A stretch of DNA of 64,000 nucleotides from an uncultured Candidatus Saccharibacteria bacterium (GTDB lineage Bacteria > Patescibacteriota > Minisyncoccia > Phycocordibacterales > UBA9973): assembly GCA_964348725.1 (NCBI GenBank), contig CAYGDG010000004.1, positions 2,133 through 66,132 of the forward strand, in the 5' to 3' direction. A model generated the notes under the pieces. It was given only the letters and a program-made list of their open reading frames with translations, had not been told where the DNA came from and searched no databases. Position 1 is the first letter of the stretch, and each line of letters opens with the position of its first letter. Below are positions 10,828 to 64,000 of this stretch, one piece after another. Made by a program: the position numbers and the translations under genes.

Positions 10828-10837
10828 TTTCTGCATT

Positions 10838-10873
10838 CACCCTCTCCTTAATAAGGAGAGGGCAGGGTGAGGT
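10838..10873 (+). repeat. palindromic element copy A (CACCCTCTCCTTAATAAGGAGAGGGCAGGGTGAGGTG), intergenic, 10 nt upstream of the msrB ATG
   Basis: A 10-bp perfect inverted repeat (CCCTCTCCTT / AAGGAGAGGG) with a 3-nt loop, followed by CAGGGTGAGGT. Near-identical to copy B at 61264..61298. Confidence 0.8.
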
Positions 10874-17133: not shown

Positions 17134-17139
17134 TTATTT

Positions 17140-17171
17140 GTAACATTTTCTGCGATAGCAGAGATTGTTAC
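17140..17171 (+). promoter_or_regulatory. 32-nt palindrome copy 1 (GTAACATTTTCTGCGATAGCAGAGATTGTTAC): putative operator and/or terminator
   Basis: Outer inverted repeat GTAACA/TGTTAC plus inner CTGCGATAGCAG. Identical to copy 2. Followed by a T-run. Confidence 0.5.
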
Positions 17172-17296
17172 ATTTAGATATTTTTTATTACTTTTTTATC
17201 AAATATTTAAGAAGGTTTTTTATAATCCCTTCAAATCAGTTATGAGGTAGCCGAAAATCACAAAAAGAGTAGGCATACAAATTTAATATTTTAGCT

Positions 17297-17980
17297 ATGA
17301 AAAAAGTTTTGTTCTTTGTAATTATTTTGGCTATTGCTCCGCCTCTGTCTGCGCAAGTGCACATAGAGGCTCTGGATTTTCCGACAGCTATGACAGTGCC
17401 CGGAGAGAATCAGATGTTTGCTCGGTATCAGATCGCGTCCGATTCAAATTCGGCATATCTGTATATGGATACCTGCAATATGCTTTTCTACGATTTCGGG
17501 AATTTCTCGGGGATGTCCCTGCGGAATGTCAGGCTGTTCGTAGACGGCGAGGAAAGATTGATGCAGATGACGATGCCCGGTGATTTCTGGCAATTTTATC
17601 CGAGCATATTGCTCGGTTTTCCGTATGGCTTTGCGGACACGGCGCAGATTCATTTTCTGGCTGATCTGCCGGACACGCTCGGTGATGACTTCATCCCCTC
17701 CGTAGGCGATTCGCTGTATGCGAGTATCCATTGCAGCTGTCATTATGTTACAGGCACCGGCTCTTTTGCCACCAATGAAGCCATCAGCCAGACTGTCTTC
17801 GTGACGTCTTCCTCCGTCGGAATTGCGCAACCTTCGCCGCAAAATTTCTCCGAGCGCCAAAATGCTCGCTTCTTTGATATCTTAGGCAGAGAAATCAGCC
17901 GAAGCAATCTGGAAAATCTCCCGCCCGGCGTGTACATCTGGCGGAGTGACCGCTTGGCAGGGAAAATCCTCGTGCGGTAA
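17297..17980 (+). CDS. secreted protein with a T9SS (Por)-type C-terminal sorting-domain-like tail
   Basis: Signal peptide MKKVLFFVIILAIAPPLSAQ. The C-terminus FFDILGREISRSNLENLPPGVYIWRSDRLAGKILVR resembles the Por_Secre_tail consensus (..D..GR.V......LP.GVYI......GK..K.LV). Confidence 0.5.
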   Translation: MKKVLFFVIILAIAPPLSAQVHIEALDFPTAMTVPGENQMFARYQIASDSNSAYLYMDTCNMLFYDFGNFSGMSLRNVRLFVDGEERLMQMTMPGDFWQFYPSILLGFPYGFADTAQIHFLADLPDTLGDDFIPSVGDSLYASIHCSCHYVTGTGSFATNEAISQTVFVTSSSVGIAQPSPQNFSERQNARFFDILGREISRSNLENLPPGVYIWRSDRLAGKILVR

Positions 17981-18034
17981 AAATTACTCGCGAGAAAAGC
18001 CATCGGGAACGGTGGCTTTCTTTTTACCAAGAAT

Positions 18035-18066
18035 GTAACATTTTCTGCGATAGCAGAGATTGTTAC
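18035..18066 (+). promoter_or_regulatory. 32-nt palindrome copy 2, immediately upstream of a TATAAT and the PaaX-like gene
   Basis: Identical to copy 1. Followed by ATCTAATCACACCTATAATAATATG, so it overlaps the likely promoter of 18089..18571. Confidence 0.5.
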
Positions 18067-18088
18067 ATCTAATCACACCTATAATAAT

Positions 18089-18571
18089 ATGAGCATAGTT
18101 AACGAAATTTTGCAGCAGTTAAATAAACAGGCATTTAATTACAAAGGCGCGCGCGTCAGTTTCTTTGGTATTCCAGAATTTAAAAAATATCGCACGGGCT
18201 CAGTCCGGGCGACTTTCTCTCGCTTGCTTGCCGATGGGCTCGTAGAAGATTGCGGTGACTTGCGCATCACAGTGAAAGGAAAAGAATATATAAAAAGAAA
18301 AATTGATTCACTGAAGCAGTTTGATTTCCGATTTGCCAAAGACGCGCCGAAGAATCTGATGGTAATGTTTGATGTGCCTGAGACGAAGAAGGCGGAGAGG
18401 GAATGGCTGCGCTGGCAGCTAAAAAAATTCAGTTACTTGATGATTCAAAAGAGTGTGTGGGTCGGCCCGTCGCCCTTGCCAAAGGAATTTATGGAGTATG
18501 TGGAAGAAATCGGTCTGAAAGACAGCCTAAAGACCTTTAAACTGGCGAAAGGGTATGACTTTAAAAAATAG
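18089..18571 (+). CDS. PaaX-like small transcriptional regulator (N-terminal winged HTH plus Cas2-like ferredoxin-fold domain)
   Basis: The N-terminus GSVRATFSRLLADGLVEDCGDLRITVKGKEYIKRK is wHTH-like. The middle NLMVMFDVPETKKAEREWLRWQLKKFSYLMIQKSVWVGPSP matches the PaaX/Cas2 pattern (PaaX: KWLLLLSEGLDKSTLADVKKQLIWQGFGALAPSLMASPS; Cas2: LVVV...R.RL...L...G..VQ.SV). Confidence 0.4.
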   Translation: MSIVNEILQQLNKQAFNYKGARVSFFGIPEFKKYRTGSVRATFSRLLADGLVEDCGDLRITVKGKEYIKRKIDSLKQFDFRFAKDAPKNLMVMFDVPETKKAEREWLRWQLKKFSYLMIQKSVWVGPSPLPKEFMEYVEEIGLKDSLKTFKLAKGYDFKK

Positions 18572-18578
18572 AAAATAA

Positions 18579-18610
18579 GTTACATTTCCTGCTATCGCAG
18601 AGTTTGTAAC
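18579..18610 (+). promoter_or_regulatory. 32-nt palindrome copy 3 (GTTACATTTCCTGCTATCGCAGAGTTTGTAAC), just after the PaaX-like stop codon
   Basis: Same architecture as copies 1 and 2, with the core reverse-complemented. Followed by TTTTAT. Confidence 0.5.
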
Positions 18611-18783
18611 TTTTATAAATATTTCGGCGCGTTGTCCAGCCAGCCCAAAATAAAGCCCAGAGCGAGGAAGATGACAAGCAGAACGGCGAGGATTATGTAG
18701 GTTTTTCGCATATCTTAATTATATAAGATAATAACCAAAATAAAAACAGGAAGCTTGTAATTACAAGCTTCCTGTTCATTTTT

Positions 18784-26527: not shown

Positions 26528-26715
26528 AATAAGAAGTTTCCCTTACTTTACAATTTATAAAAGATTAAATCAAGTTATCCACCTTTGTGGCTTGCGTCAT
26601 TTTCCCGGCATTTTGGTATAATATATCCATAACCAATTGTTATTTTGACAATTAATCTAAACTCCATCCATACATCTAAAAAAGTCCCCCGAGTAAAGTA
26701 GGAGGCAAACACATT

Positions 26716-27666
26716 ATGAAAACTTTAGGCTTTCTTTTGCTGATTGTGCTTTGTCTTTTAGCATATTCAGTACTCGCGCAGAATCCAAATCTCGTGCCGA
26801 ATCCGAGTTTTGAATTTTATGATTCGCTTCCAAATGATGATTCTCAAATCGGTCGCGCGACCGGATGGAATGCCTGCTCAAACACCCCTGATTATTTTCA
26901 CGGCGCTTCGCCGAGCGGAAATGTCAGCATCCCGCAAAATTATTTCGGCACCGTGGAGCTTTCAGGGAATGAAGAGGTAGGGTGTGCCGGTTTTTATGCC
27001 AAGCATCCTTCGCATTATTGCGAAGTCGTAGGCAGAAAGCTTGCCAGCCCGCTCATATCAGGTGTGACATACTATGTATCTTTTTATGTGAGCAGGGCGG
27101 AAAAGATATCTAATTGCGGAGTTGATCACATTGGCGTTCTTTTTACCGATTATTTCTTCGGGGATACGGTGCACGGATGTGTTATCGTAGATAATCCGCC
27201 GCAAGTGCAGGATTTTGCCCACGTTTATTCCGAAGAGATAATCATTGATACTTTGGAATGGACGAAGATAAGTGGCTCGTTTACCCCAAGGGAAATATAC
27301 CGATTTATCTATATCGGTAATTTCTTCCATGTCCCAAATATGGAAATTGTTTCGGAGCCGCAGGATACTTGTATTGCATATTATTATCTTGATAATGTAT
27401 GCGTCTCAACTGATCCGGAAGTGTGCGGTGTAGTGGCGAGTGTGCAAAAACGAGAAGCTGCAAAGCATCCGCCGCTCTGGCCGAATCCATTTCAGGACAA
27501 TCTGTATATCCGTGATGCGGGTGTACCGGCGACATTATGTTCCGTTTTAGGGCAAGAACTCCGGCACTGGGAAGTAATTCCTAGTGAAATTGACTTCTCG
27601 GATTTTGAAAGAGGAGTGTATTTCTTGAAAACTGAAAAAGAAGTTTTCAAACTGATCAAACAATAA
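26716..27666 (+). CDS. secreted protein with a T9SS (Por)-type C-terminal sorting-domain-like tail
   Basis: Signal peptide MKTLGFLLLIVLCLLAYSVLAQ. The C-terminus LWPNPFQDNLYIRD ... LCSVLGQELRHWEV ... IDFSDFERGVYFLKTEKEVFKLIKQ matches the Por_Secre_tail pattern (YPNP......I......I.D..G..V......iD.S.L..GVYF.K........KLIK). Confidence 0.55.
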   Translation: MKTLGFLLLIVLCLLAYSVLAQNPNLVPNPSFEFYDSLPNDDSQIGRATGWNACSNTPDYFHGASPSGNVSIPQNYFGTVELSGNEEVGCAGFYAKHPSHYCEVVGRKLASPLISGVTYYVSFYVSRAEKISNCGVDHIGVLFTDYFFGDTVHGCVIVDNPPQVQDFAHVYSEEIIIDTLEWTKISGSFTPREIYRFIYIGNFFHVPNMEIVSEPQDTCIAYYYLDNVCVSTDPEVCGVVASVQKREAAKHPPLWPNPFQDNLYIRDAGVPATLCSVLGQELRHWEVIPSEIDFSDFERGVYFLKTEKEVFKLIKQ

Positions 27667-34116: not shown

Positions 34117-35994
34117 TTATTCCGTTTTTACTTCCTCAAACTTCACTTTCTCCTCCTTTCCCTTGATGACTTTCTCCGGCTGGAAGGCGCGGGAGAGAGG
34201 GACGGTATGCATGGCGGCTGTCATGGAGCCGTCTTTTTTTATTTTTATTTCCAGGAGCGCGCCGCGCATGGTATTTACGGAAAAGTATTGATCAAAGATA
34301 AAATTACCGAGGCTGTATGCGATGTAGCCATTTTTATATATTTCCGTATCCTGCACCACGTGCGGATGCGCGCCGATGACGAGCTTGGCGCCCGCATCTA
34401 CTGCGCGGTGGGCGAGCGTTTCTTGCCGTTCATTGTGTTTCGTCTGATATTCATCGCCGAAGTGAAATGATACGACGAGGTGATCTACTTCCGCGGCGGC
34501 ATTTTTTATTATTTCATCAAAATTCGGATCGCTGGCGAGGAGGAGCCCGGCTTCAGTTTCTGTCGCTTTCATCCAGTCGGGACCCACATCAGAGAAAGCG
34601 ATATAGCCTATCTTGATACCATACTTTTCTATGATTGCCGGCTTTTTCGCTTCTTCGTAATTCATGCCGCCGCCGGCTGTGAGTATTTCATTTTCTTTCA
34701 GGCGAGCGAGGGTATCGGTGAAGGCATTTCTACCCCAGTCGCCGACATGATTATTTGCAAGCGACAGTACGGAAAAGCCCGCGCCTTTGAGAGCGGGAGG
34801 CACGGTAGGGTCCATACGGAAAGAATACAAGTTACGTTTGTCAGCGCCTTGATCCGATGCGGGACCTTCCAGATTCGCAAATGCGATGTCCGCTTTTTGC
34901 AATATCCCCAGATTTTCAAAAAGAGCGGTATAATCACCGCCAAAATTTTTCATGACAGAATTTTTGACACCCCGATCCAGCATGATGTCGCCGCCGAAGA
35001 CGAGCGTGAGGAAGTCCGGATCTTTTATTTCCGGCACGCCTTCTTTTTCTTTCACCCAGGCAGTGTCCGCGTCCGCTTCGCCGCCGTAGTATACATTTTT
35101 TTTCAGATATTTCACGAGGCTCATGACGTCCGCATATCTATCAGGGCTCCGCAGGAGGGCGATGGCGACAGTGCGGTTGCCCGTTTCGGAAAGCGGTAGT
35201 ATAAAGACGGATAGTACGGTTTGACGCGCAGGATCAGTGTAGCCGCTCTTGCCGCCCTGATATCCTTCTTCACGCAGGAATTGATTGTTTGATGACCAGA
35301 TATGGCGGTCGGTCTTATATGTTCGTTTAGAACTTATGGAAAAGAGCTCAGGTTTTTTTGTACTAATGAAACCGGCAAGGCGAAAGAGGTCAAGCGCACT
35401 GCCTTGATTCCCGGCGGAAAGCCCGCTCGGATCGGCAAATGATGCTGACAATGCGAGGCGCTCGGATTCCTGGTTCATTTTTGCGATAAAATTTTCACGT
35501 CCGAAATGTTCGGCAAGTATTTCCGCGGCATCGTTTGATGATTCCAGAAGCAGGGGATACAAGAGGTCGCCAGTCTGTATTTTTTCACCTTTCCGAAAGC
35601 CGCCGTTTTCGCCGTATGTGGCGAGCGCGCGAGGGGATACTATCGCCGTGTCATGTTCGCGCGGTAGCTCCGTAGATACGAGGGCAGTCATGAGCTTGGA
35701 CACGGACGCGAGCGGCATCACTTCTTTTTCATTCTTTTTTAAAATTATTTCTCCGGTATCCAAGTCGCCCACGATGTATGCTTCTGCGGCTACTTTTGGT
35801 TTGGCGCTGCCATCTTTGAGGAAATAAAAGAATTCCGGCTCTTGTGGTACAGGGGTCACGGTGACGGGCGCCGGCTCACCTGTTTTTATTTTCTGATAAT
35901 TCGCACTCGTAATAAAAAAGACGAGCGATACGCCTACACCGATGGAAAAAATGGTCCAGAAAAATGCCTTGATTTTTCCTGTGTGCGTCATCAT
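34117..35994 (-). CDS. fusion protein: N-terminal serine-type D-Ala-D-Ala carboxypeptidase (PBP5/DacA-like) domain plus C-terminal CapA/PgsA-type metallophosphatase domain
   Basis: N-terminal TM segment. SxxK LASVSKLMTALV. SxN SSNDAA. KTG-like KSGYT. The C-terminal half has VFGGDIMLDRGV ... FANLEGP ... LANNHVGDWG ... VVSFHFGDEY ... GAHPHVVQ ... YSLGNFIFDQ (CapA/YwtB-like). Confidence 0.65.
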   Translation of the reverse strand: MMTHTGKIKAFFWTIFSIGVGVSLVFFITSANYQKIKTGEPAPVTVTPVPQEPEFFYFLKDGSAKPKVAAEAYIVGDLDTGEIILKKNEKEVMPLASVSKLMTALVSTELPREHDTAIVSPRALATYGENGGFRKGEKIQTGDLLYPLLLESSNDAAEILAEHFGRENFIAKMNQESERLALSASFADPSGLSAGNQGSALDLFRLAGFISTKKPELFSISSKRTYKTDRHIWSSNNQFLREEGYQGGKSGYTDPARQTVLSVFILPLSETGNRTVAIALLRSPDRYADVMSLVKYLKKNVYYGGEADADTAWVKEKEGVPEIKDPDFLTLVFGGDIMLDRGVKNSVMKNFGGDYTALFENLGILQKADIAFANLEGPASDQGADKRNLYSFRMDPTVPPALKGAGFSVLSLANNHVGDWGRNAFTDTLARLKENEILTAGGGMNYEEAKKPAIIEKYGIKIGYIAFSDVGPDWMKATETEAGLLLASDPNFDEIIKNAAAEVDHLVVSFHFGDEYQTKHNERQETLAHRAVDAGAKLVIGAHPHVVQDTEIYKNGYIAYSLGNFIFDQYFSVNTMRGALLEIKIKKDGSMTAAMHTVPLSRAFQPEKVIKGKEEKVKFEEVKTE

Positions 35995-37952
35995 GCTAGT
36001 TCGTAATCAATTATTTTGCGCTCCAAATCTGCCTTTTTTACTTTTATTTTTACGCTGTCGCCCAGGCGATAGCGCTTTTTCTTTTTCTTGCCGACGAGCT
36101 CCAGTTTTTTCTCGTCAAAGATATAAAAATCGTCCGATATGTCGCGGGCGCGTACCATGCCTTCGCACTTTGTCTCAATTTCTTCCACGTATATGCCCCA
36201 CTCGGTGACGCCGGAGATGATGCCTTTAAATGTCTCCCCAATACGGTGCGACATGTATTCCGTCTGCTTGTATTTGATGGATGCGCGTTCAGCGTCAGAT
36301 GCGCGCTTTTCCTGGTCGGAACTTTTGCGGGACATCATCTCATACTCGCTCAATTTTTCTTTCGGCACTTTCTTGCCGGCAAGGTATTCCATAAGCAGGC
36401 GGTGCACCATCACGTCCGGATAGCGGCGGATAGGGGAAGTAAAGTGCGTGTAGTGCTCAAAAGCGAGGCCGTAGTGCCCGATATTTTTTGTGGAGTATAT
36501 CGCTTTTGCCATAGAGCGGATGACCGCGCGATGCACGGCGTCCTTTTCGGGCTTGCCGGCGAGCGAGGCGAGGAGTTTATTTATTTCAAATGGGGGAATG
36601 ACGCCGTTCAGTAATTTTACTTTGTATCCGAGGCCGTTTAGGAAGAGCGCAAGGTCGTGCATTTTTTCTTTTTCCGGCGCGTCATGAATGCGGTACACGA
36701 AGACGCCTTCGCCTTTCTTCATTCCTTTGCCAATGCGTTCGGCTACTTTACGATTCGCGAGGAGCATGAGCTCTTCTATCAATTTATTTGAATCTCCGCG
36801 CACTTTTTTTATGACTTTGAGCGGCACGCCTTTTTCATCCAGCACGAATTTTACTTCTTCCTGGTCCAAAGACACTGCGCCTTTCCGGAAGCGCTCAGCG
36901 GTGAGCTTTTTGGCGATGCCGTTTATGATGGCGAGTTCCGCGTGTAATTCACCATTCTTATCCGTGATAGATTTCTCCGCGTCTTCATAGCTGAAACGCT
37001 TTGCGGAGTGGATGACGGTGCGGCCGAACCATTCATCCAGTACCTGACCTTCTGTGTTCATGTGGAATACGGCGCTCATGGTCAGGCGGTCCTGGCCGGG
37101 CACGAGGGAGCAGAGATCATTTGAAAGTACTTCGGGGAGCATGGGTATCGTCCTGTCTACCAAATATACAGAAGTCGCCCGCTCGCGCGCTTCCTGATCC
37201 AGCTCGCTGCCGGGACGCACGTAATACGATACGTCTGCGATGTGGATGCCGATTTCGTACACCTCACCCCCTGACCCCCTCTCCTTAGTAAGGAGAGGGG
37301 GAAGAATGCGGAAAGAAATCGCGTCATCAAAATCTTTCGCATCTGCCGGGTCAATAGTGAAGGTGAGTATGTTTCTGAAATCGCGGCGGCCTTCGTAATC
37401 TTTTTCAGAAATGCCGAGCCGGCTGATGGCCTGCGCTTCATCTTCCGTACCTCTTGGCAGATCTGGCGCAAAGCCGCGCTCAATGGCGATGGCATTCATC
37501 TCGGCGGAATTTTCGCCCGGCTTGCCGAGCACGCGCATGACTTTTCCTTCAGGCGCTTTGCGCGCATCTTTCCACGACGCTATCTCTACGTACGCTTTTT
37601 CGCCGGCTTTGGCGCCGCCCAGGTTCGCCGGGGGGATCAAGATGTCCGTATACATCTTTGTATCATCTGGCTTCAAAAAAAACACGCCGTTCTCTTCTTC
37701 AATCACGCCGGAAAAACCACGCTTGGCGCGGGATATGATTTCCACCACTTCGCCCGTCTGCCGCACACCTTTCTTTTGCGGGAATAAGGCCACGAGCACG
37801 GTATCGCCGTGCAGGCCGGTGTGCAGATGCAGGGATTCTATTTCCACATCTTCTTCATCTTTCTTTTTTTTCGGTTCCAATGTGCGCAGGTAGCCTACGC
37901 CTTTACCGGAAACAGACAGTATGCCTTCAAGGCGGTTAGATTGTGTATCCAT
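35991..37952 (-). CDS. rnr: ribonuclease R (RNB-family 3'-5' exoribonuclease) carrying an in-frame palindromic-element insertion
   Basis: Cold-shock-like N-terminal domains. RNB motifs FTIDPADAKDFDDAISF and HFTSPIRRYPDVMVHRLL. C-terminal S1 domain and a K-rich tail. Confidence 0.85.
   Translation of the reverse strand: MDTQSNRLEGILSVSGKGVGYLRTLEPKKKKDEEDVEIESLHLHTGLHGDTVLVALFPQKKGVRQTGEVVEIISRAKRGFSGVIEEENGVFFLKPDDTKMYTDILIPPANLGGAKAGEKAYVEIASWKDARKAPEGKVMRVLGKPGENSAEMNAIAIERGFAPDLPRGTEDEAQAISRLGISEKDYEGRRDFRNILTFTIDPADAKDFDDAISFRILPPLLTKERGSGGEVYEIGIHIADVSYYVRPGSELDQEARERATSVYLVDRTIPMLPEVLSNDLCSLVPGQDRLTMSAVFHMNTEGQVLDEWFGRTVIHSAKRFSYEDAEKSITDKNGELHAELAIINGIAKKLTAERFRKGAVSLDQEEVKFVLDEKGVPLKVIKKVRGDSNKLIEELMLLANRKVAERIGKGMKKGEGVFVYRIHDAPEKEKMHDLALFLNGLGYKVKLLNGVIPPFEINKLLASLAGKPEKDAVHRAVIRSMAKAIYSTKNIGHYGLAFEHYTHFTSPIRRYPDVMVHRLLMEYLAGKKVPKEKLSEYEMMSRKSSDQEKRASDAERASIKYKQTEYMSHRIGETFKGIISGVTEWGIYVEEIETKCEGMVRARDISDDFYIFDEKKLELVGKKKKKRYRLGDSVKIKVKKADLERKIIDYELA
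37261..37300 (-). repeat. palindromic element copy C, in-frame inside rnr (encodes PPLLTKERGSGGEV)
   Basis: The sense strand reads CCCCCTCTCCTTACTAAGGAGAGGGGGTCAGGGGGTGAGG. Same family as copies A and B, with substitutions that remove in-frame stop codons. Confidence 0.7.
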
Positions 37953-51487: not shown

Positions 51488-51494
51488 CAGGCTT

Positions 51495-51590
51495 CCCCTC
51501 CTTGATTAAGGAGGGGATTGAGGGGTGGTAATTCAAAAAATCACCACCTCGGCCTTCGGCCACTCCTCCTCAATAAGGAGGAGAAATATG
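51495..51590 (+). repeat. cluster of three GC-rich hairpins after rpoD, two of them SD/anti-SD-like palindromes related to the repeat family
   Basis: CCCCTCCTTgatTAAGGAGGGG followed by ATTGAGGGGTGG. GGCCttcgGCC. CTCCTCCTcaatAAGGAGGAG followed 7 nt later by an ATG that opens a 13-codon ORF. Confidence 0.6.
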
Positions 51591-51765
51591 TGGTTTGAGC
51601 CTTATTTTGTAAGGCTATTTACCTGTTGACTTTTATACCCATATATGCTATACTTATCAGGTAAAGTAGTTTTTTAACAAATATTGATTTTGGGAATTTA
51701 GTGGCTGCCAGAGGAGCTTTTTGGCTCTTGCGGTGGCTACTAAACTCTATAAACAAAATCAAATT

Positions 51766-51930
51766 ATGAAAACATTAGATTCCATTCTCTTCTATCTCTT
51801 TATTTTTATGTTCCTAGGTCTTTCAGTTGGATTATTCTTTGGTTCAGAACCGATTACGAATAAGCATCTTGTCTCCCTGATTACCTTGGCAGTTGGTGCA
51901 ATTCTATTCAGAATAGAAAAAGGAAGTTAA
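51766..51930 (+). CDS. small hypothetical two-TM membrane protein
   Basis: 54 aa counted from the internal ATG (MKTLDSILFYLFIFMFLGLSVGLFF ...). Weak support. Confidence 0.3.
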   Translation: MKTLDSILFYLFIFMFLGLSVGLFFGSEPITNKHLVSLITLAVGAILFRIEKGS

Positions 51931-51995
51931 AAATCAAACCACCGCGCAAAAGAAAAACCACTTTTGCCGGTGGTTTTTCTTTTGCCAATTTTAAT

Positions 51996-60498: not shown

Positions 60499-61276
60499 AA
60501 AGAATCGGCAGAAAAAATATCGCACCATTGCGATAGGCGTTTTCATTTTGCTCGTCGCCATATATTTCCGTGCGGAAATTTACAATGGCTTTTCGCGTGT
60601 TCTCGGCGCGGTGGCAAAACCATTTCTCTCGTTCGGCCGAAATGTGGGCGGCGGCATTTCCGGCACTGGCGCGGCTTTTGCTTCCAAAAAATCTTTGCGT
60701 GCGGAAAATGAAAATCTAGAGGCACAGCTCGCCGAAATGCAGGGCAGGATGGGGAACTATGATATTCTGGCCGCCGAAAATGAAAACTTGAAAGAAATAT
60801 TGGCGAGAAAAAAAACTCCCGGCACATTGCTCCTCGCCGCCATCCTCGCACATCCGAACCGCTCTTTATACGATACTGTACTTATAGACGCGGGCGAAGC
60901 TGAAGGGGTGAAAGCAGGCGACAGGGTATTCGCGGAAGGCGATATACCGCTCGGCACAGTGGCGGAAGTCATGCCGCACTCGGCAAAAGTGCTCTTGTAT
61001 TCAAATCCCGGCGAGAAGACCGAAGCCATCCTCGGCGAAGGGCATGTCACCCTCACCGGCCGCGGCAGGGGAAATTTTGAGATGATTCTGCCGCGTGATT
61101 ATGTATTGGAGCCAGGCACTGCCGCGCATCTGCCCGGTATATATCCGTATGTCATTGCCCGCACGGCCACGGTCATTTCCGACCCGCGGGATTCGTTTCA
61201 GAAAGCGTTACTGATCAGCCCGGTGAATATTAATCACCTCAAATTTGTGGAGGTGGAGGTTTCACCCTCTCCTTAA
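60479..61276 (+). CDS. mreC: rod shape-determining protein MreC
   Basis: N-terminal TM segment. Coiled coil ENENLEAQLAEMQ ... ENENLKEIL. Beta-rich C-terminal domain. The last 6 codons and the TAA stop lie inside palindromic element copy B. Overlaps mreB. Confidence 0.8.
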   Translation: MSYLLDKKNRQKKYRTIAIGVFILLVAIYFRAEIYNGFSRVLGAVAKPFLSFGRNVGGGISGTGAAFASKKSLRAENENLEAQLAEMQGRMGNYDILAAENENLKEILARKKTPGTLLLAAILAHPNRSLYDTVLIDAGEAEGVKAGDRVFAEGDIPLGTVAEVMPHSAKVLLYSNPGEKTEAILGEGHVTLTGRGRGNFEMILPRDYVLEPGTAAHLPGIYPYVIARTATVISDPRDSFQKALLISPVNINHLKFVEVEVSPSP

Positions 61277-61298
61277 TAAGGAGAGGGCAGGGTGAGGT
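61264..61298 (+). repeat. palindromic element copy B (CACCCTCTCCTTAATAAGGAGAGGGCAGGGTGAGGT), between mreC and tgt
   Basis: Identical over about 35 nt to copy A. It supplies the mreC stop codon and a GGTGAGGT motif 5 nt upstream of the tgt ATG. Confidence 0.8.
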
Positions 61299-61302
61299 TC
61301 TT

Positions 61303-62568
61303 ATGAAATTTGAAATTATAAAAAAACTAAATAATTTGCTCGGTCGCGCGGGAATTTTAGAAACTCCGCACGGGGTTATCCGCACGCCGGCATTCGTGGC
61401 CGTCGGTACGAAAGCGACGGTGAAATCCCTCACGCCCGAGCACGTCAAAAGCGCCGGCTGCCAAGTGGTGCTCGGCAATACCTATCATTTATATTTACAG
61501 CCCGGCGATGAGATAGTGCGCAAAGCCGGCGGCATCGGGAAATTTATGAATTGGCAAGGACCGACGATGACGGATTCCGGCGGCTTCCAGGTATTTTCGC
61601 TGGGCGCGGCATACGGCAAAGATATTTCTAAAGTAATAAAAATCACCGACCCGTCGCTCCTAATACCAGAGCGTTTTGATGACAGCGATGCTCCGCGCCT
61701 CGCGAAGATCGGCGCAGACGGCGTGTCCTTCAAATCGCACTTGGACGGAAGCATTCACTACATCACGCCGGAAAAATCCATCCAGATCCAGCACAATCTC
61801 GGCGCGGATATTATTTTCGCTTTTGACGAATGCACTTCGCCGGCGGAAGATGTGCGCTATCAGGAAGAAGCATTGGAACGCACGCACCGCTGGGCGGAGC
61901 GATGTTTACGGGAGCACATCAAACTTAATACCACCCCCTTACCCCCTCCTAATTTAGGAGGGGGAAGCTCCGACCTAGGTCGGAGCGGGGGAGGTATCGC
62001 ATTGTTTGGAATTGTGCAAGGCGGCAGGGAAGAAAATTTACGCAAAAAATCCGCCAAGATAATTTCGGAGATGCAAGTGGATGGAAAAGGATTTGATGGC
62101 TTCGGCATCGGCGGCTCTTTCGCGAAGGAAGATATGAGTACTGCCGTAAAATGGGTGAATGAAATTTTGCCGGAAGAAAAGCCGCGGCACTTGCTCGGCA
62201 TCGGCGAGCCGGAAGATTTTTTTATGGGCATAGAAAACGGCGTGGATCTTTTTGACTGCGTCATCCCGACGCGCCTCGGCCGAAACGGCACGATATATAC
62301 GAAAAGAGGGAAGATAGTGATCACGAATGCGCAGTACAGAGAAGATTTTACGCCGATAGAGGATGACTGCCCGTGCACGACCTGCCAAGGCTACACCAAA
62401 GCCTACATCGCGCACCTTTTCCGCGGCAAAGAAATGCTCGCCGGCACGCTCGCCTCCACGCATAATATGTATTTCATCGTCTCCCTCGTAGACAAAATCC
62501 GGCAATCTATTTTGGATGGAAATTTTTATGAATTTAAGGAAAGCTTTATGAGGGAATATATAAAATAA
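61303..62568 (+). CDS. tgt: queuine tRNA-ribosyltransferase carrying an in-frame palindromic insertion
   Basis: TPAFVAVGTKA, QGPTMTDSGGFQVFSLG, LGIGEPED ... DLFDCVIPTR, and the zinc site CPCTTCQGYTKAYIAHL. Confidence 0.9.
   Translation: MKFEIIKKLNNLLGRAGILETPHGVIRTPAFVAVGTKATVKSLTPEHVKSAGCQVVLGNTYHLYLQPGDEIVRKAGGIGKFMNWQGPTMTDSGGFQVFSLGAAYGKDISKVIKITDPSLLIPERFDDSDAPRLAKIGADGVSFKSHLDGSIHYITPEKSIQIQHNLGADIIFAFDECTSPAEDVRYQEEALERTHRWAERCLREHIKLNTTPLPPPNLGGGSSDLGRSGGGIALFGIVQGGREENLRKKSAKIISEMQVDGKGFDGFGIGGSFAKEDMSTAVKWVNEILPEEKPRHLLGIGEPEDFFMGIENGVDLFDCVIPTRLGRNGTIYTKRGKIVITNAQYREDFTPIEDDCPCTTCQGYTKAYIAHLFRGKEMLAGTLASTHNMYFIVSLVDKIRQSILDGNFYEFKESFMREYIK
61931..61993 (+). repeat. composite palindromic element inserted in-frame in tgt (encodes TTPLPPPNLGGGSSDLGRSGGGI)
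   Basis: CCCCCTCCTaatttAGGAGGGGG followed by CTCCGACCTAGGTCGGAG. About 20 extra residues relative to the canonical Tgt loop between RWA..R and ALFGI(I/V)QGG. Confidence 0.65.
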
Positions 62569-63081: not shown

Positions 63082-64000
63082 ATGGGGTTTAAACTCAAAA
63101 CTGAATTTCAGCCTGCGGGCGACCAGCCGAAGGCTATAGAGGGGCTGGTGAGCGGGCTCAAAAAGGGTATGCGGAAGCAGACATTGCTGGGTGTGACGGG
63201 TTCGGGCAAGACTTTTACGATGGCGAATGTCATACAGCAGATGCAAAAGCCGACGCTGGTGATAGCGCATAACAAGACCCTGGCCGCCCAGCTGGCGCAG
63301 GAGTTCAAGGAATTTTTTCCGGAAAATGCCGTGCATTATTTTGTTTCTTATTACGATTATTACCAGCCGGAAGCGTACTTGCCGACGACGGACACATACA
63401 TAGAAAAAGACGCGCAAATAAATAAAGAGATTGATCGGCTTCGTCATGCGAGTACGCAGGCACTTTTGTCCAGAAAAGATGTGATAATAGTTGCCTCAGT
63501 GTCCTGCATTTACGGCTTGGGAAGTCCGGAAGAATATAAGGAAGAAAATATGTCCCTCGCCGTGGGCGATGCCGCCGGGCGCTCGGAGATAATGAAGCGC
63601 CTTATCGGTATGCATTTCTCGCGCACGAATGCGGACCTGACGCCGGGAACTTTCCGCGCGATGGGGCAAAAGGTAGAACTGATGCCGATTTCGGAGACTT
63701 TTACATATAGTATTGAATTTTCCCCCTCTCCTTTACAAGGAGAGGGCGGGGGTGAGGTTCTTCGCATTTTAAAAATAGACGCCGTGTCATCCAAAGTCCT
63801 CGGTGAAGAGCAGAATATTTTTATTTTTCCGGCGAAGCACTTCATCACGAACAAAGCGAAGCTTCAGCAGGCGATAAAAAATATCAAAGAAGAACTGAAA
63901 GCCCAGCTGAAGAAATTTGATAAGGAAGGAAAAATTTTGGAAGCCGAGCGGCTGAAGCGCCGCACGAATTATGATCTGGCGATGCTGCGCGAAGTGGGCT
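63082..64000 (+). CDS. uvrB: excinuclease ABC subunit B (5' part; continues beyond window)
   Basis: MGFKLKTEFQPAGDQPKAIEGLVSGL ... QTLLGVTGSGKTFTMANVI ... YFVSYYDYYQPEAY ... ASVSCIYGLGSPEEY. Confidence 0.9.
   Translation, partial: MGFKLKTEFQPAGDQPKAIEGLVSGLKKGMRKQTLLGVTGSGKTFTMANVIQQMQKPTLVIAHNKTLAAQLAQEFKEFFPENAVHYFVSYYDYYQPEAYLPTTDTYIEKDAQINKEIDRLRHASTQALLSRKDVIIVASVSCIYGLGSPEEYKEENMSLAVGDAAGRSEIMKRLIGMHFSRTNADLTPGTFRAMGQKVELMPISETFTYSIEFSPSPLQGEGGGEVLRILKIDAVSSKVLGEEQNIFIFPAKHFITNKAKLQQAIKNIKEELKAQLKKFDKEGKILEAERLKRRTNYDLAMLREVG
63722..63758 (+). repeat. palindromic element copy D in-frame inside uvrB (encodes SPSPLQGEGGGEV)
   Basis: CCCCCTCTCCTTTACAAGGAGAGGGCGGGGGTGAGGT. Same family. 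The stop-creating positions are altered (TTTACAA loop, GGCGGGGG). Confidence 0.7.

Follow-up and report, generated by a model that had tools for sequence, protein, structure and literature searches.

In a 64,000-nucleotide (nt) stretch of the uncultured Candidatus Saccharibacteria contig CAYGDG010000004.1 (hereafter the window), the boundary between mreC and tgt is formed by a copy of a short repeat, E5, which contains the mreC stop codon and reaches almost to the tgt start codon. E5 is probably a copy of a dispersed, non-coding class II purine-motif intrastrand-triplex repeat, the family known as BoxC, as potential intrastrand triplex (PIT) elements, or as TM_ECO. In this Paceibacteria/Nomurabacteria-like genome it would have inserted at the mreC-tgt boundary and been tolerated there as a near-neutral by-product of repeat spread. 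A puzzling gene boundary would thereby be explained by a repeat family described in Escherichia coli in the 1990s. The family itself is known; what is unusual here is that copies lie inside genes and at their very ends. The setting is also new, an ultra-compact Patescibacteria genome with overlapping genes in which the repeat cannot be confined to sites between genes as in E. coli, but instead rewrites gene ends and adds loops of 8-22 residues to Tgt, UvrB, and RNase R.

The 3' end of mreC reads gtg gag gtg gag gtt tca ccc tct cct TAA TAA and encodes ...KFVEVEVSPSP; the open reading frame (ORF) and the sequence agree on this ending, as an earlier note on this DNA had described it. Upstream of E5 the coding end is ...GTGGAGGT, and E5 supplies the codons at 61262-61273 (SPSP) and the stop. 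The earlier note had placed six codons and the stop inside the repeat; the stop does lie there, but the unit starts at 61261, as judged from its identity with copy E1, and holds four whole codons plus 2 nt of a Val codon. E5 opens with TTCA, followed by the pyrimidine arm CCCTCTCCTT (61265-74), the loop AAT (61275-77), the purine arm AAGGAGAGGG (61278-87), a loop CA (61288-89), and the mirror third strand GGGTGAGGTT (61290-99). Its 10-bp hairpin has computed folding energies of -17 kcal/mol as RNA and -10.5 kcal/mol as DNA (z = -4.4), and the mreC stop consists of the final stem T and two loop A's. The tgt ATG is the earliest start codon in its own frame in the ORF list and begins 26 nt past the first mreC stop. 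It is close to the repeat tail, as had been proposed, although the distance is 4 nt (TCTT) from GGTGAGGT and becomes 5 nt only when counted from GAGG.

The 38-nt string TTCACCCTCTCCTTAATAAGGAGAGGGCAGGGTGAGGT occurs twice in the window without a mismatch, at 61261-61298 and 10836-10873, between unrelated flanks (0 expected from 100 shuffles). The tail of this second copy, E1, is 9 nt from the msrB ATG. A recurrence of the E5 arrangement upstream of msrB, as suggested earlier, therefore holds for the downstream half only: E1 is wholly intergenic, and the stop of the DUF1761 gene lies 8 nt before the unit.

Table 1. Genes and repeat copies at the mreC-tgt boundary and elsewhere in the window (aa, amino acids; PDB, Protein Data Bank).
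Feature	Position	Strand	Basis and remarks
mreC coding sequence, 265 aa	60479..61276	+	ORF list; Pfam MreC PF04085
New mreC stop TAA at the hairpin apex	61274..61276	+	Second in-frame TAA directly after, 61277-79
tgt coding sequence, 421 aa	61303..62568	+	Pfam TGT; PDB alignment; N-terminus aligned with relatives' tgt starts
Repeat copy E5, 39 bases	61261..61299	+	38-nt identity with 10836-10873; triads 9/9 (10/10 by direct reading); folds
E1, 100% identical to E5	10836..10873	+	Wholly intergenic, DUF1761 gene (stop 10825-27) to msrB (ATG 10883); triads 9/9
E2, in frame within RNase R (rnr, 35991..37952, -)	37261..37305	-	Encodes ..LPPLLTKERGSGGEV..; 10-aa insertion; triads 11/11; PDB alignment
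E3, sequence variant TCCCCTCCTT / AAGGAGGGGA / AGGGGTGGTA	51494..51530	+	Directly past the rpoD stop; triads 10/10; third strand covaries with arms
E4, variant CTCCTCCT-TATTG-AGGAGGAG-TGGCCGAAGGCC-GAGGTGGT	51543..51583	-	Loop-2 mini-hairpin GGCCGAAGGCC; triads 8/8 by direct reading
E6, full-length composite	61930..61995	+	Left arm ACCACCCCC, hairpins 1 and 2, right arm GGGGGAGGT; in frame within tgt, encodes TTPLPPPNLGGGSSDLGRSGGG; triads 9/9
E7, in frame within uvrB (ORF from 63082, running off the window)	63720..63759	+	Encodes EF-S-PSPLQGEG-GG-EV; 8-aa insertion; triads 10/10

Scanning the window for pyrimidine/purine hairpins returned seven loci, E1 to E7 (Table 1). All seven form Watson-Crick hairpins with 8-12 bp in the stem and 3-5 nt in the loop (arms of at least 8 nt and a loop of 1-6 nt were required), and in all seven a G-rich segment located 2-22 nt downstream of the purine arm is its mirror image, so that no triads other than G·G, A·A, and T·A arise and every copy has a perfect set. 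The arms differ among copies (AGGAGAGGG, AAGGAGGGGA, AGGAGGGGG, AGGAGGAG), and the third strand changes in step with them, which amounts to a three-way covariation across E1, E3, E4, and E6. A purpose-written triad finder detected seven motifs in the window and none in each of 20 shuffles. The longer copies are E4 and E6, whose loop 2 contains an additional small hairpin; E6 also carries a left arm rich in C, forms its triads on both strands, and has a predicted three-way junction of -26 kcal/mol (z = -6.3).

These variants separate the two structural models published for the family: the mirror (triplex) symmetry is strictly kept, and the G-quadruplex (G4) potential is lost. Kaplan et al. 2016 (PMC5100583) read the E. 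coli loci as a G-quadruplex-hairpin-duplex switch (HPGQ) with support from circular dichroism (CD), and found "none within" ORFs. A comparable switch at E5, in which purine arm and tail would form a G4 competing with the hairpin, could draw on this CD evidence and on the canonical copies from other phyla (GGGAGAGGG-NNN-GGGTGAGGG), which carry four runs of three or more G's. Yet none of the seven window copies has the four G3 runs, spaced 1-7 nt apart, of the HPGQ definition, and only two-tetrad G2 patterns are possible in them; all retain perfect mirror triads with a covarying third strand; and nuclear magnetic resonance (NMR) favoured the triplex over the G4 for the E. coli motif (Holder et al. 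2015, PMC4666352). We rejected the G4 reading for the window copies for want of four G3 runs and consider a switch of this type scarcely credible here.

The family has been named BoxC, then PIT elements, and then TM_ECO (Bachellier, 1990s; Hoyne and Maher 2000; Holder et al. 2015). The TM_ECO consensus, CCCTCNCCC N3-6 GGGNGAGGG N3 GGGNGAGGG, is a class II purine-motif triplex, and the corresponding oligonucleotide forms a very stable triplex by CD and NMR (PMC4666352). The window copies share with it the three blocks (a pyrimidine arm, its purine counterpart, and a G-rich third strand in mirror symmetry) separated by short loops, nearly the same arms (CCCTCTCC / GGAGAGGG / GGGTGAGG), a high copy number per genome, palindromic forms with triplex motifs on both strands, the lack of a transposase, and variable junctions. 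E1, E2, E5, and E7 match the consensus at eight of nine positions per block, the ninth being T/A/T instead of C/G/G, so that the stems have eight G/C-rich positions plus T/A pairs rather than nine G/C-rich positions; the arm sequences of E3, E4, and E6 differ from the consensus. The loops are A/T-rich, and loop 2 measures 2-6 nt, or 12-22 nt where it holds a hairpin of its own, as opposed to 3 nt in the consensus. The host also differs (a 47% GC Patescibacteria genome), as do the density (about one copy per 9 kb versus 23 per 4.6 Mb in MG1655) and the placement. In MG1655 the motif lies exclusively between genes, with "no trend to a specific distance" from ORFs (PMC4666352), whereas three of the seven window copies are in frame within genes (E2 in rnr, E6 in tgt, and E7 in uvrB) and E5, overlapping the mreC 3' end, supplies a stop; strict intergenic placement is, however, an observation from E. 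coli and not part of the structural definition. Judged by its sequence, the window element falls under the structural definition of the BoxC/PIT/TM_ECO family and departs from the E. coli consensus at the ninth stem position and in its loop lengths; the symmetry of its blocks suggests that it may form a triplex. No Rfam family was found at any copy (gathering thresholds for the whole window; E-value mode for 61150-61400) or at 14 loci in other phyla.

When 185,579 species genomes were scanned, the pattern CCCTCTCC-N4-10-GGAGAGGG-N1-10-GGTGAGG matched at least 120 stretches of genomic DNA, among them the E. coli hrpB-mrcB site; they come from Planctomycetota, Chloroflexota, Cyanobacteria, Bacteroidota, Verrucomicrobiota, Actinomycetota, Omnitrophota, many Proteobacteria, and others. 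Among the matches listed, the typical form is CCCTCTCCC-N4-GGGAGAGGG-YYR-GGGTGAGGG. With blastn, a copy from Enterobacter matched 4038 of 5426 E. coli genomes, for example in the hrpB-mrcB spacer named by Kaplan et al. At least 15 phyla contain exactly the strings CCCTCTCC..GGAGAGGG..GGTGAGG, a wider range than the Proteobacteria and Cyanobacteria stressed in the literature, and what recurs across phyla is shared sequence, not merely a shared fold. Some copies form tandem arrays, with a period of about 151 nt in a Pseudomonas locus (L017) and of 78 nt in a Bacteroidales locus (L027), and also in L091, L097, and L099.

Relatives of the window show what the junction looks like elsewhere in the clade. 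The best MreC relatives carry Paceibacterota or Nomurabacteria annotations, and their identity is no higher than about 55%. In all 119 of 119 relatives MreC ends in ...(E/Q)LKFVEVE[K/I/L/Q] followed by the stop, a few having 1-5 extra, unrelated residues, and SPSP occurs in none. Among 80 related metagenome loci tabulated for the junction, the mreC stop overlaps the tgt ATG in 12 (TAATG or TGATG), lies 2-5 nt before it in eight, and 16 nt before it in one. About a dozen loci have spacers of 51-107 nt with assorted palindromes, and elsewhere 0.6-7 kb of extra genes separate mreC from tgt (e.g., L003 and L174). The Tgt N-terminus is colinear with that of the window in all tabulated loci (M(K/H/Q)F(E/K)I..KKL..LGRAG). 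Relatives without SPSP therefore differ from the window in their MreC termini and share its tgt start, and the earlier proposal that a single inserted unit remodelled the 3' end of mreC is supported by the absence of SPSP from the homologues and by their tight junctions. The comparison supports E5 as a putative insertion that removed the old mreC stop and split a compact, probably translationally coupled junction. We also considered a deletion scar, given that L003 has a gene of 257 aa between mreC and tgt that is absent from the window, and rejected it, since mreC directly adjoins tgt in most relatives; we take the additional genes of L003, L174, and further loci for lineage-specific insertions at this junction.

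In L161 and L200, too, a triplex-type element separates mreC from tgt, and L132/L133 have one 22 nt past the mreC stop. In a rough neighbour-joining tree of MreC, based on this one protein, the window and the element-bearing lineages fall into four separate clades whose neighbours lack the element. This pattern favours independent gains at the mreC-tgt junction over the alternative, old inheritance with repeated loss. Relatives have 18 triplex motifs per 920 kb, compared with seven per 64 kb in the window, and most of theirs lie within long ORFs (tgt, mreC, and others). Examples in frame are located in mreC of L204 (5068-5100) and in the N-terminal part of tgt in L160 (11238-11270), and others lie in long ORFs of 486 and 1904 codons (L153 9967-10039 and L187 9369-9404). 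By analogy, this location inside genes resembles that of Rickettsia palindromic elements (RPEs) rather than that of E. coli BoxC.

We propose the following history. In single-stranded form, repeat DNA would be able to double back on itself two times, giving C-G·G / T-A·A / T-A·T triads. No transposase is associated with the family in the literature. The ancestral junction would have been compact, of the TAATG type, with the genes overlapping or abutting and probably translationally coupled. Insertion of about 40 nt would have cost mreC its original stop, with a replacement four codons further on at the hairpin apex, and would have left the tgt start codon unchanged but 26 nt away from the upstream stop. 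In a genome with almost no intergenic space, such an insertion was presumably tolerated as essentially neutral; the length of the MreC C-terminus already varies among relatives, and a tail of four residues should therefore matter little. No target-site duplication is visible at E5, and none is common to E1 and E5: GAGGTT occurs on both sides of E5 because the VEVEV codons resemble the tail. Excision between these GAGGTT copies was rejected as a reconstruction of the ancestral site, as it would leave mreC without a stop.

Several observations weigh against this explanation of E5. The TM_ECO triplex was undetected in vivo by DMS footprinting in E. coli (PMC4666352). The nearest relatives, at about 55% MreC identity, provide no pair of empty and filled sites from which the exact breakpoints could be reconstructed. 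The E5 tail is one of the three best matches to the anti-Shine-Dalgarno (anti-SD) sequence in the window, at a workable spacing, and full-length elements also precede the tgt ATG in L161 and L200, where the tail is 6 nt from the ATG. The tail may therefore have a minor helper role in tgt initiation or re-initiation.

The latter two observations lead to a rival in which the repeat was exapted as a translation signal. The tail GGGTGAGG would serve as the SD of tgt (and, via E1, of msrB) in place of the SD-like VEVE codons GTGGAGGTGGAG, which directly precede the tgt ATG in relatives with a TAATG junction, and the hairpin with its apex stop would tune termination-reinitiation coupling. Against the generic anti-SD ACCUCCUUU, the E5 tail forms a duplex of -8.3 kcal/mol with GAGG 5 nt from the tgt ATG, complementary and spaced as an SD should be (4-10 nt from the start codon), and E1 reaches -8.6 kcal/mol before msrB. 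In relatives with abutting genes, the final mreC codons are SD-like at some loci (down to -10.6 kcal/mol), and the insertion would have shifted this stretch of mreC about 47 nt away while bringing a substitute. The surroundings do not favour SD-led initiation, however. SD-like leaders, defined by a duplex of -8 kcal/mol or lower and with gene starts taken from longest-ORF calls, precede only three of 67 predicted genes (msrB via E1, tgt via E5, and the ORF at 26716), leaving 64 without an SD. Leaders are typically A/T-rich, and with a mean affinity of -1.1 kcal/mol they bind less strongly than random 20-mers from the genome (-2.2 kcal/mol). There is no conserved SD before tgt in 34 relatives' leaders, which range from +2.3 to -10.6 kcal/mol, and the stronger values reflect the VEVE codons. 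In 161 copies from other phyla, gene starts show no excess at SD distance from the tail, although GC-rich genomes make this test noisy. As one recent duplicate, E1 and E5 effectively represent a single case, and the elements of L161 and L200 are full palindromes that present a G-rich 3' arm in either orientation, for which reason we dropped their orientation as evidence. In E. coli, expression was unaffected by PIT elements (PMC4666352), and SD-poor lineages can be blind to the SD despite an intact anti-SD, as described for Bacteroidia (PMC7797042 and PMC13000453). A 16S rRNA 3' end from which the anti-SD could be read was found neither within the window nor in the related loci. We thus do not uphold the earlier suggestion that the tail is the tgt ribosome-binding site, and consider exaptation unlikely. 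The SD-like look of the E5 tail is probably a by-product of the G-rich third strand, which is intrinsic to the repeat and hence did not evolve at the tgt site. In practice, SD-like strings derived from repeats can mislead the annotation of start sites and ribosome-binding sites in SD-poor lineages. The ORF at 26716-27666 has the sole strong native SD-like leader in the window that does not derive from a repeat copy (gtaggaggcaaacacattATG, 26690-26718, -10.2 kcal/mol).

A role for the hairpin at the RNA level is less probable still. In this alternative, E5 would terminate or attenuate transcription within the operon, stabilise the mreBC message at its 3' end, or act as a REP-like termination brake that lowers MreC output. 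The hairpin is predicted to be stable and straddles the mreC stop, and REP sequences within about 15 nt of a stop have reportedly been seen to stall ribosomes (Liang, Rudd, and Deutscher, 2015). A scan for intrinsic terminators and promoters, however, found none at 61261-61303, where the stem is followed by CAGGGTGAGG with no U-tract, and the repeat also lies in frame within three essential-type genes, where a terminator or stall would be harmful. PIT elements likewise lack terminator and promoter activity in E. coli, and the three-part mirror symmetry would be needless for an RNA hairpin; purine-motif triplexes do not form in RNA (PMC4666352).

An assembly artefact, in which mreC was wrongly joined to tgt through the 38-nt identity of E1 and E5, is the remaining concern. 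Two independent Logan unitigs (L001 and L002) carry an mreC that ends inside the repeat, and short-read graphs thus branch at this point. Both stop precisely at 61290, at the final unique 31-mer ahead of the repeat, in keeping with k = 31. The order of mreC followed by tgt is nevertheless conserved, with tgt at most 107 nt from the mreC stop in 36 of 82 related loci examined, and the alternative joins (mreC-msrB and DUF1761-tgt) would break this synteny. Given the conserved synteny, the join is probably correct despite the exact repeat, and a misjoin is very improbable. As the two Logan contigs illustrate, these repeats break short-read assemblies exactly at gene ends.

The intragenic copies are insertions relative to orthologues, and the family is thus both intergenic and in frame, the orthologues of Tgt, UvrB, and RNase R lacking the inserted residues. 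At E7, UvrB reads IEF-S-PSPLQGEG-GG-EV in the window, compared with IEF-x-GG-KI in clade relatives and EFF--------GDEI in Bacillus subtilis. E7 shares the reading frame of E5 and has the loop TAC instead of AAT, hence no stop; whether translation reads through or terminates thus depends on one difference in the loop. At E2, RNase R reads FRILP-PLLTKERGSG-GEVYEIG in the window and FKEMP-NNEYEIG in the Paceibacteria relative L185, whose sequence aligns as DDAISFKEMP, a 10-residue gap, and then NNEYEIGIHIADV. E6 occupies a surface loop of Tgt and is an insertion with respect to both Zymomonas mobilis Tgt (PDB alignment) and relatives with loops of 4-6 aa.

Comparable behaviour is known from other small repeats. 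According to PMC1779305 (citing Ogata et al. 2000), RPEs also inhabit a reduced genome, occur in intergenic and in-frame copies, and add short loop peptides, but they measure 100-150 bp, as opposed to 38-80 nt here, have unrelated sequences, and in that text carry no triplex motif. [quoted passage not shown] The elements described here, in contrast, have no GTAG/CGTC tag, no RAYT or transposase partner, and no terminal inverted repeats with target-site duplication, their defining trait being a mirror repeat on top of an inverted repeat. TM_ECO itself has been tied to local rearrangement between strains (PMC4666352). Our literature search found no published report of in-frame palindromic or triplex repeats in Patescibacteria. 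Tentatively, and at less than even odds in our judgement, the triplex-motif repeats of Paceibacteria and several other families of small palindromes could be site-preferring insertion elements that enter a few permissive sites in housekeeping genes and at operon junctions time and again (at the mreC/tgt boundary in at least 3-4 lineages, and in the Tgt surface loop in many), that stay in frame and make lineage-specific protein segments and gene ends. What is recognised and copied would in that case be the DNA fold itself, a triplex or three-way junction, as indicated by perfect three-way covariation in the absence of G4 potential. If true, this would offer a handle on the spread of BoxC/PIT elements among bacterial phyla.

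The Tgt loop between ...EHxKL and ALFGIVQGG (window 61900-62010, residues ~205-232; also in L126-L205) is hypervariable across the clade, ranging in length from 4 aa (L128 and L188) to more than 80 aa (L134, L144, and L178). Its DNA inserts are long imperfect palindromes of several unrelated families, sometimes nested, with fold energies of -34 to -72 kcal/mol, and the loop is apparently a landing pad for MITE-like elements that stay in frame. One and the same composite triplex element, with ACCTCACCCC as its left arm, hairpins 1 and 2, and GGGGGATGAGGTT as its right arm, is found at the same tgt codon position in three separated lineages (L150/L155 1878-1957, L201 5402-5476, and window 61930-61995), whose sister lineages have loops of 12-18 nt. 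The L150 and L201 elements are 89% identical, compared with 78% for their coding flanks, and the L150 element, at 80 nt, shifts the tgt frame. A second in-frame insert family, with peptides resembling SPDAF-QSLG..LRSATPSQK(H/Y)xGSAP, is present in the Tgt loop of L145, where it is an 87-nt palindrome, and of L142, L147, and L133. A similar peptide, DSPDAFSRVLGNNPQTSSKKHTGS, occurs at the site equivalent to E7 in one UvrB homologue (among P0121-P0240).

The convergent rpoD-dsbA spacer of the window (51488-51995) measures 508 nt, compared with 42 nt in the relative L003, and contains E3 and E4, a small ORF of 54 aa with hydrophobic character (51767-51931, a gene call on L001 too), and a terminator-like hairpin at about 51944-51975. 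Repeats also create or extend spurious antisense ORFs, a practical concern for annotation: those at 61239-61478 (-, 79 aa) and 63510-63854 (-, 114 aa), with the peptides ...SPCPLLIKERV... and ...SPPPSPCKGEGE..., are open to mis-annotation as hypothetical proteins. A different 38-nt palindrome, TGTAACATTTTCTGCGATAGCAGAGATTGTTACA, is present in three copies (17139-17176, 18034-18071, and 18578-18615) that flank the ORFs 17297-17980 and 18089-18571, and an Rfam DUF805b RNA motif (41 bits) lies at 17241-17275, beside the first of these copies.

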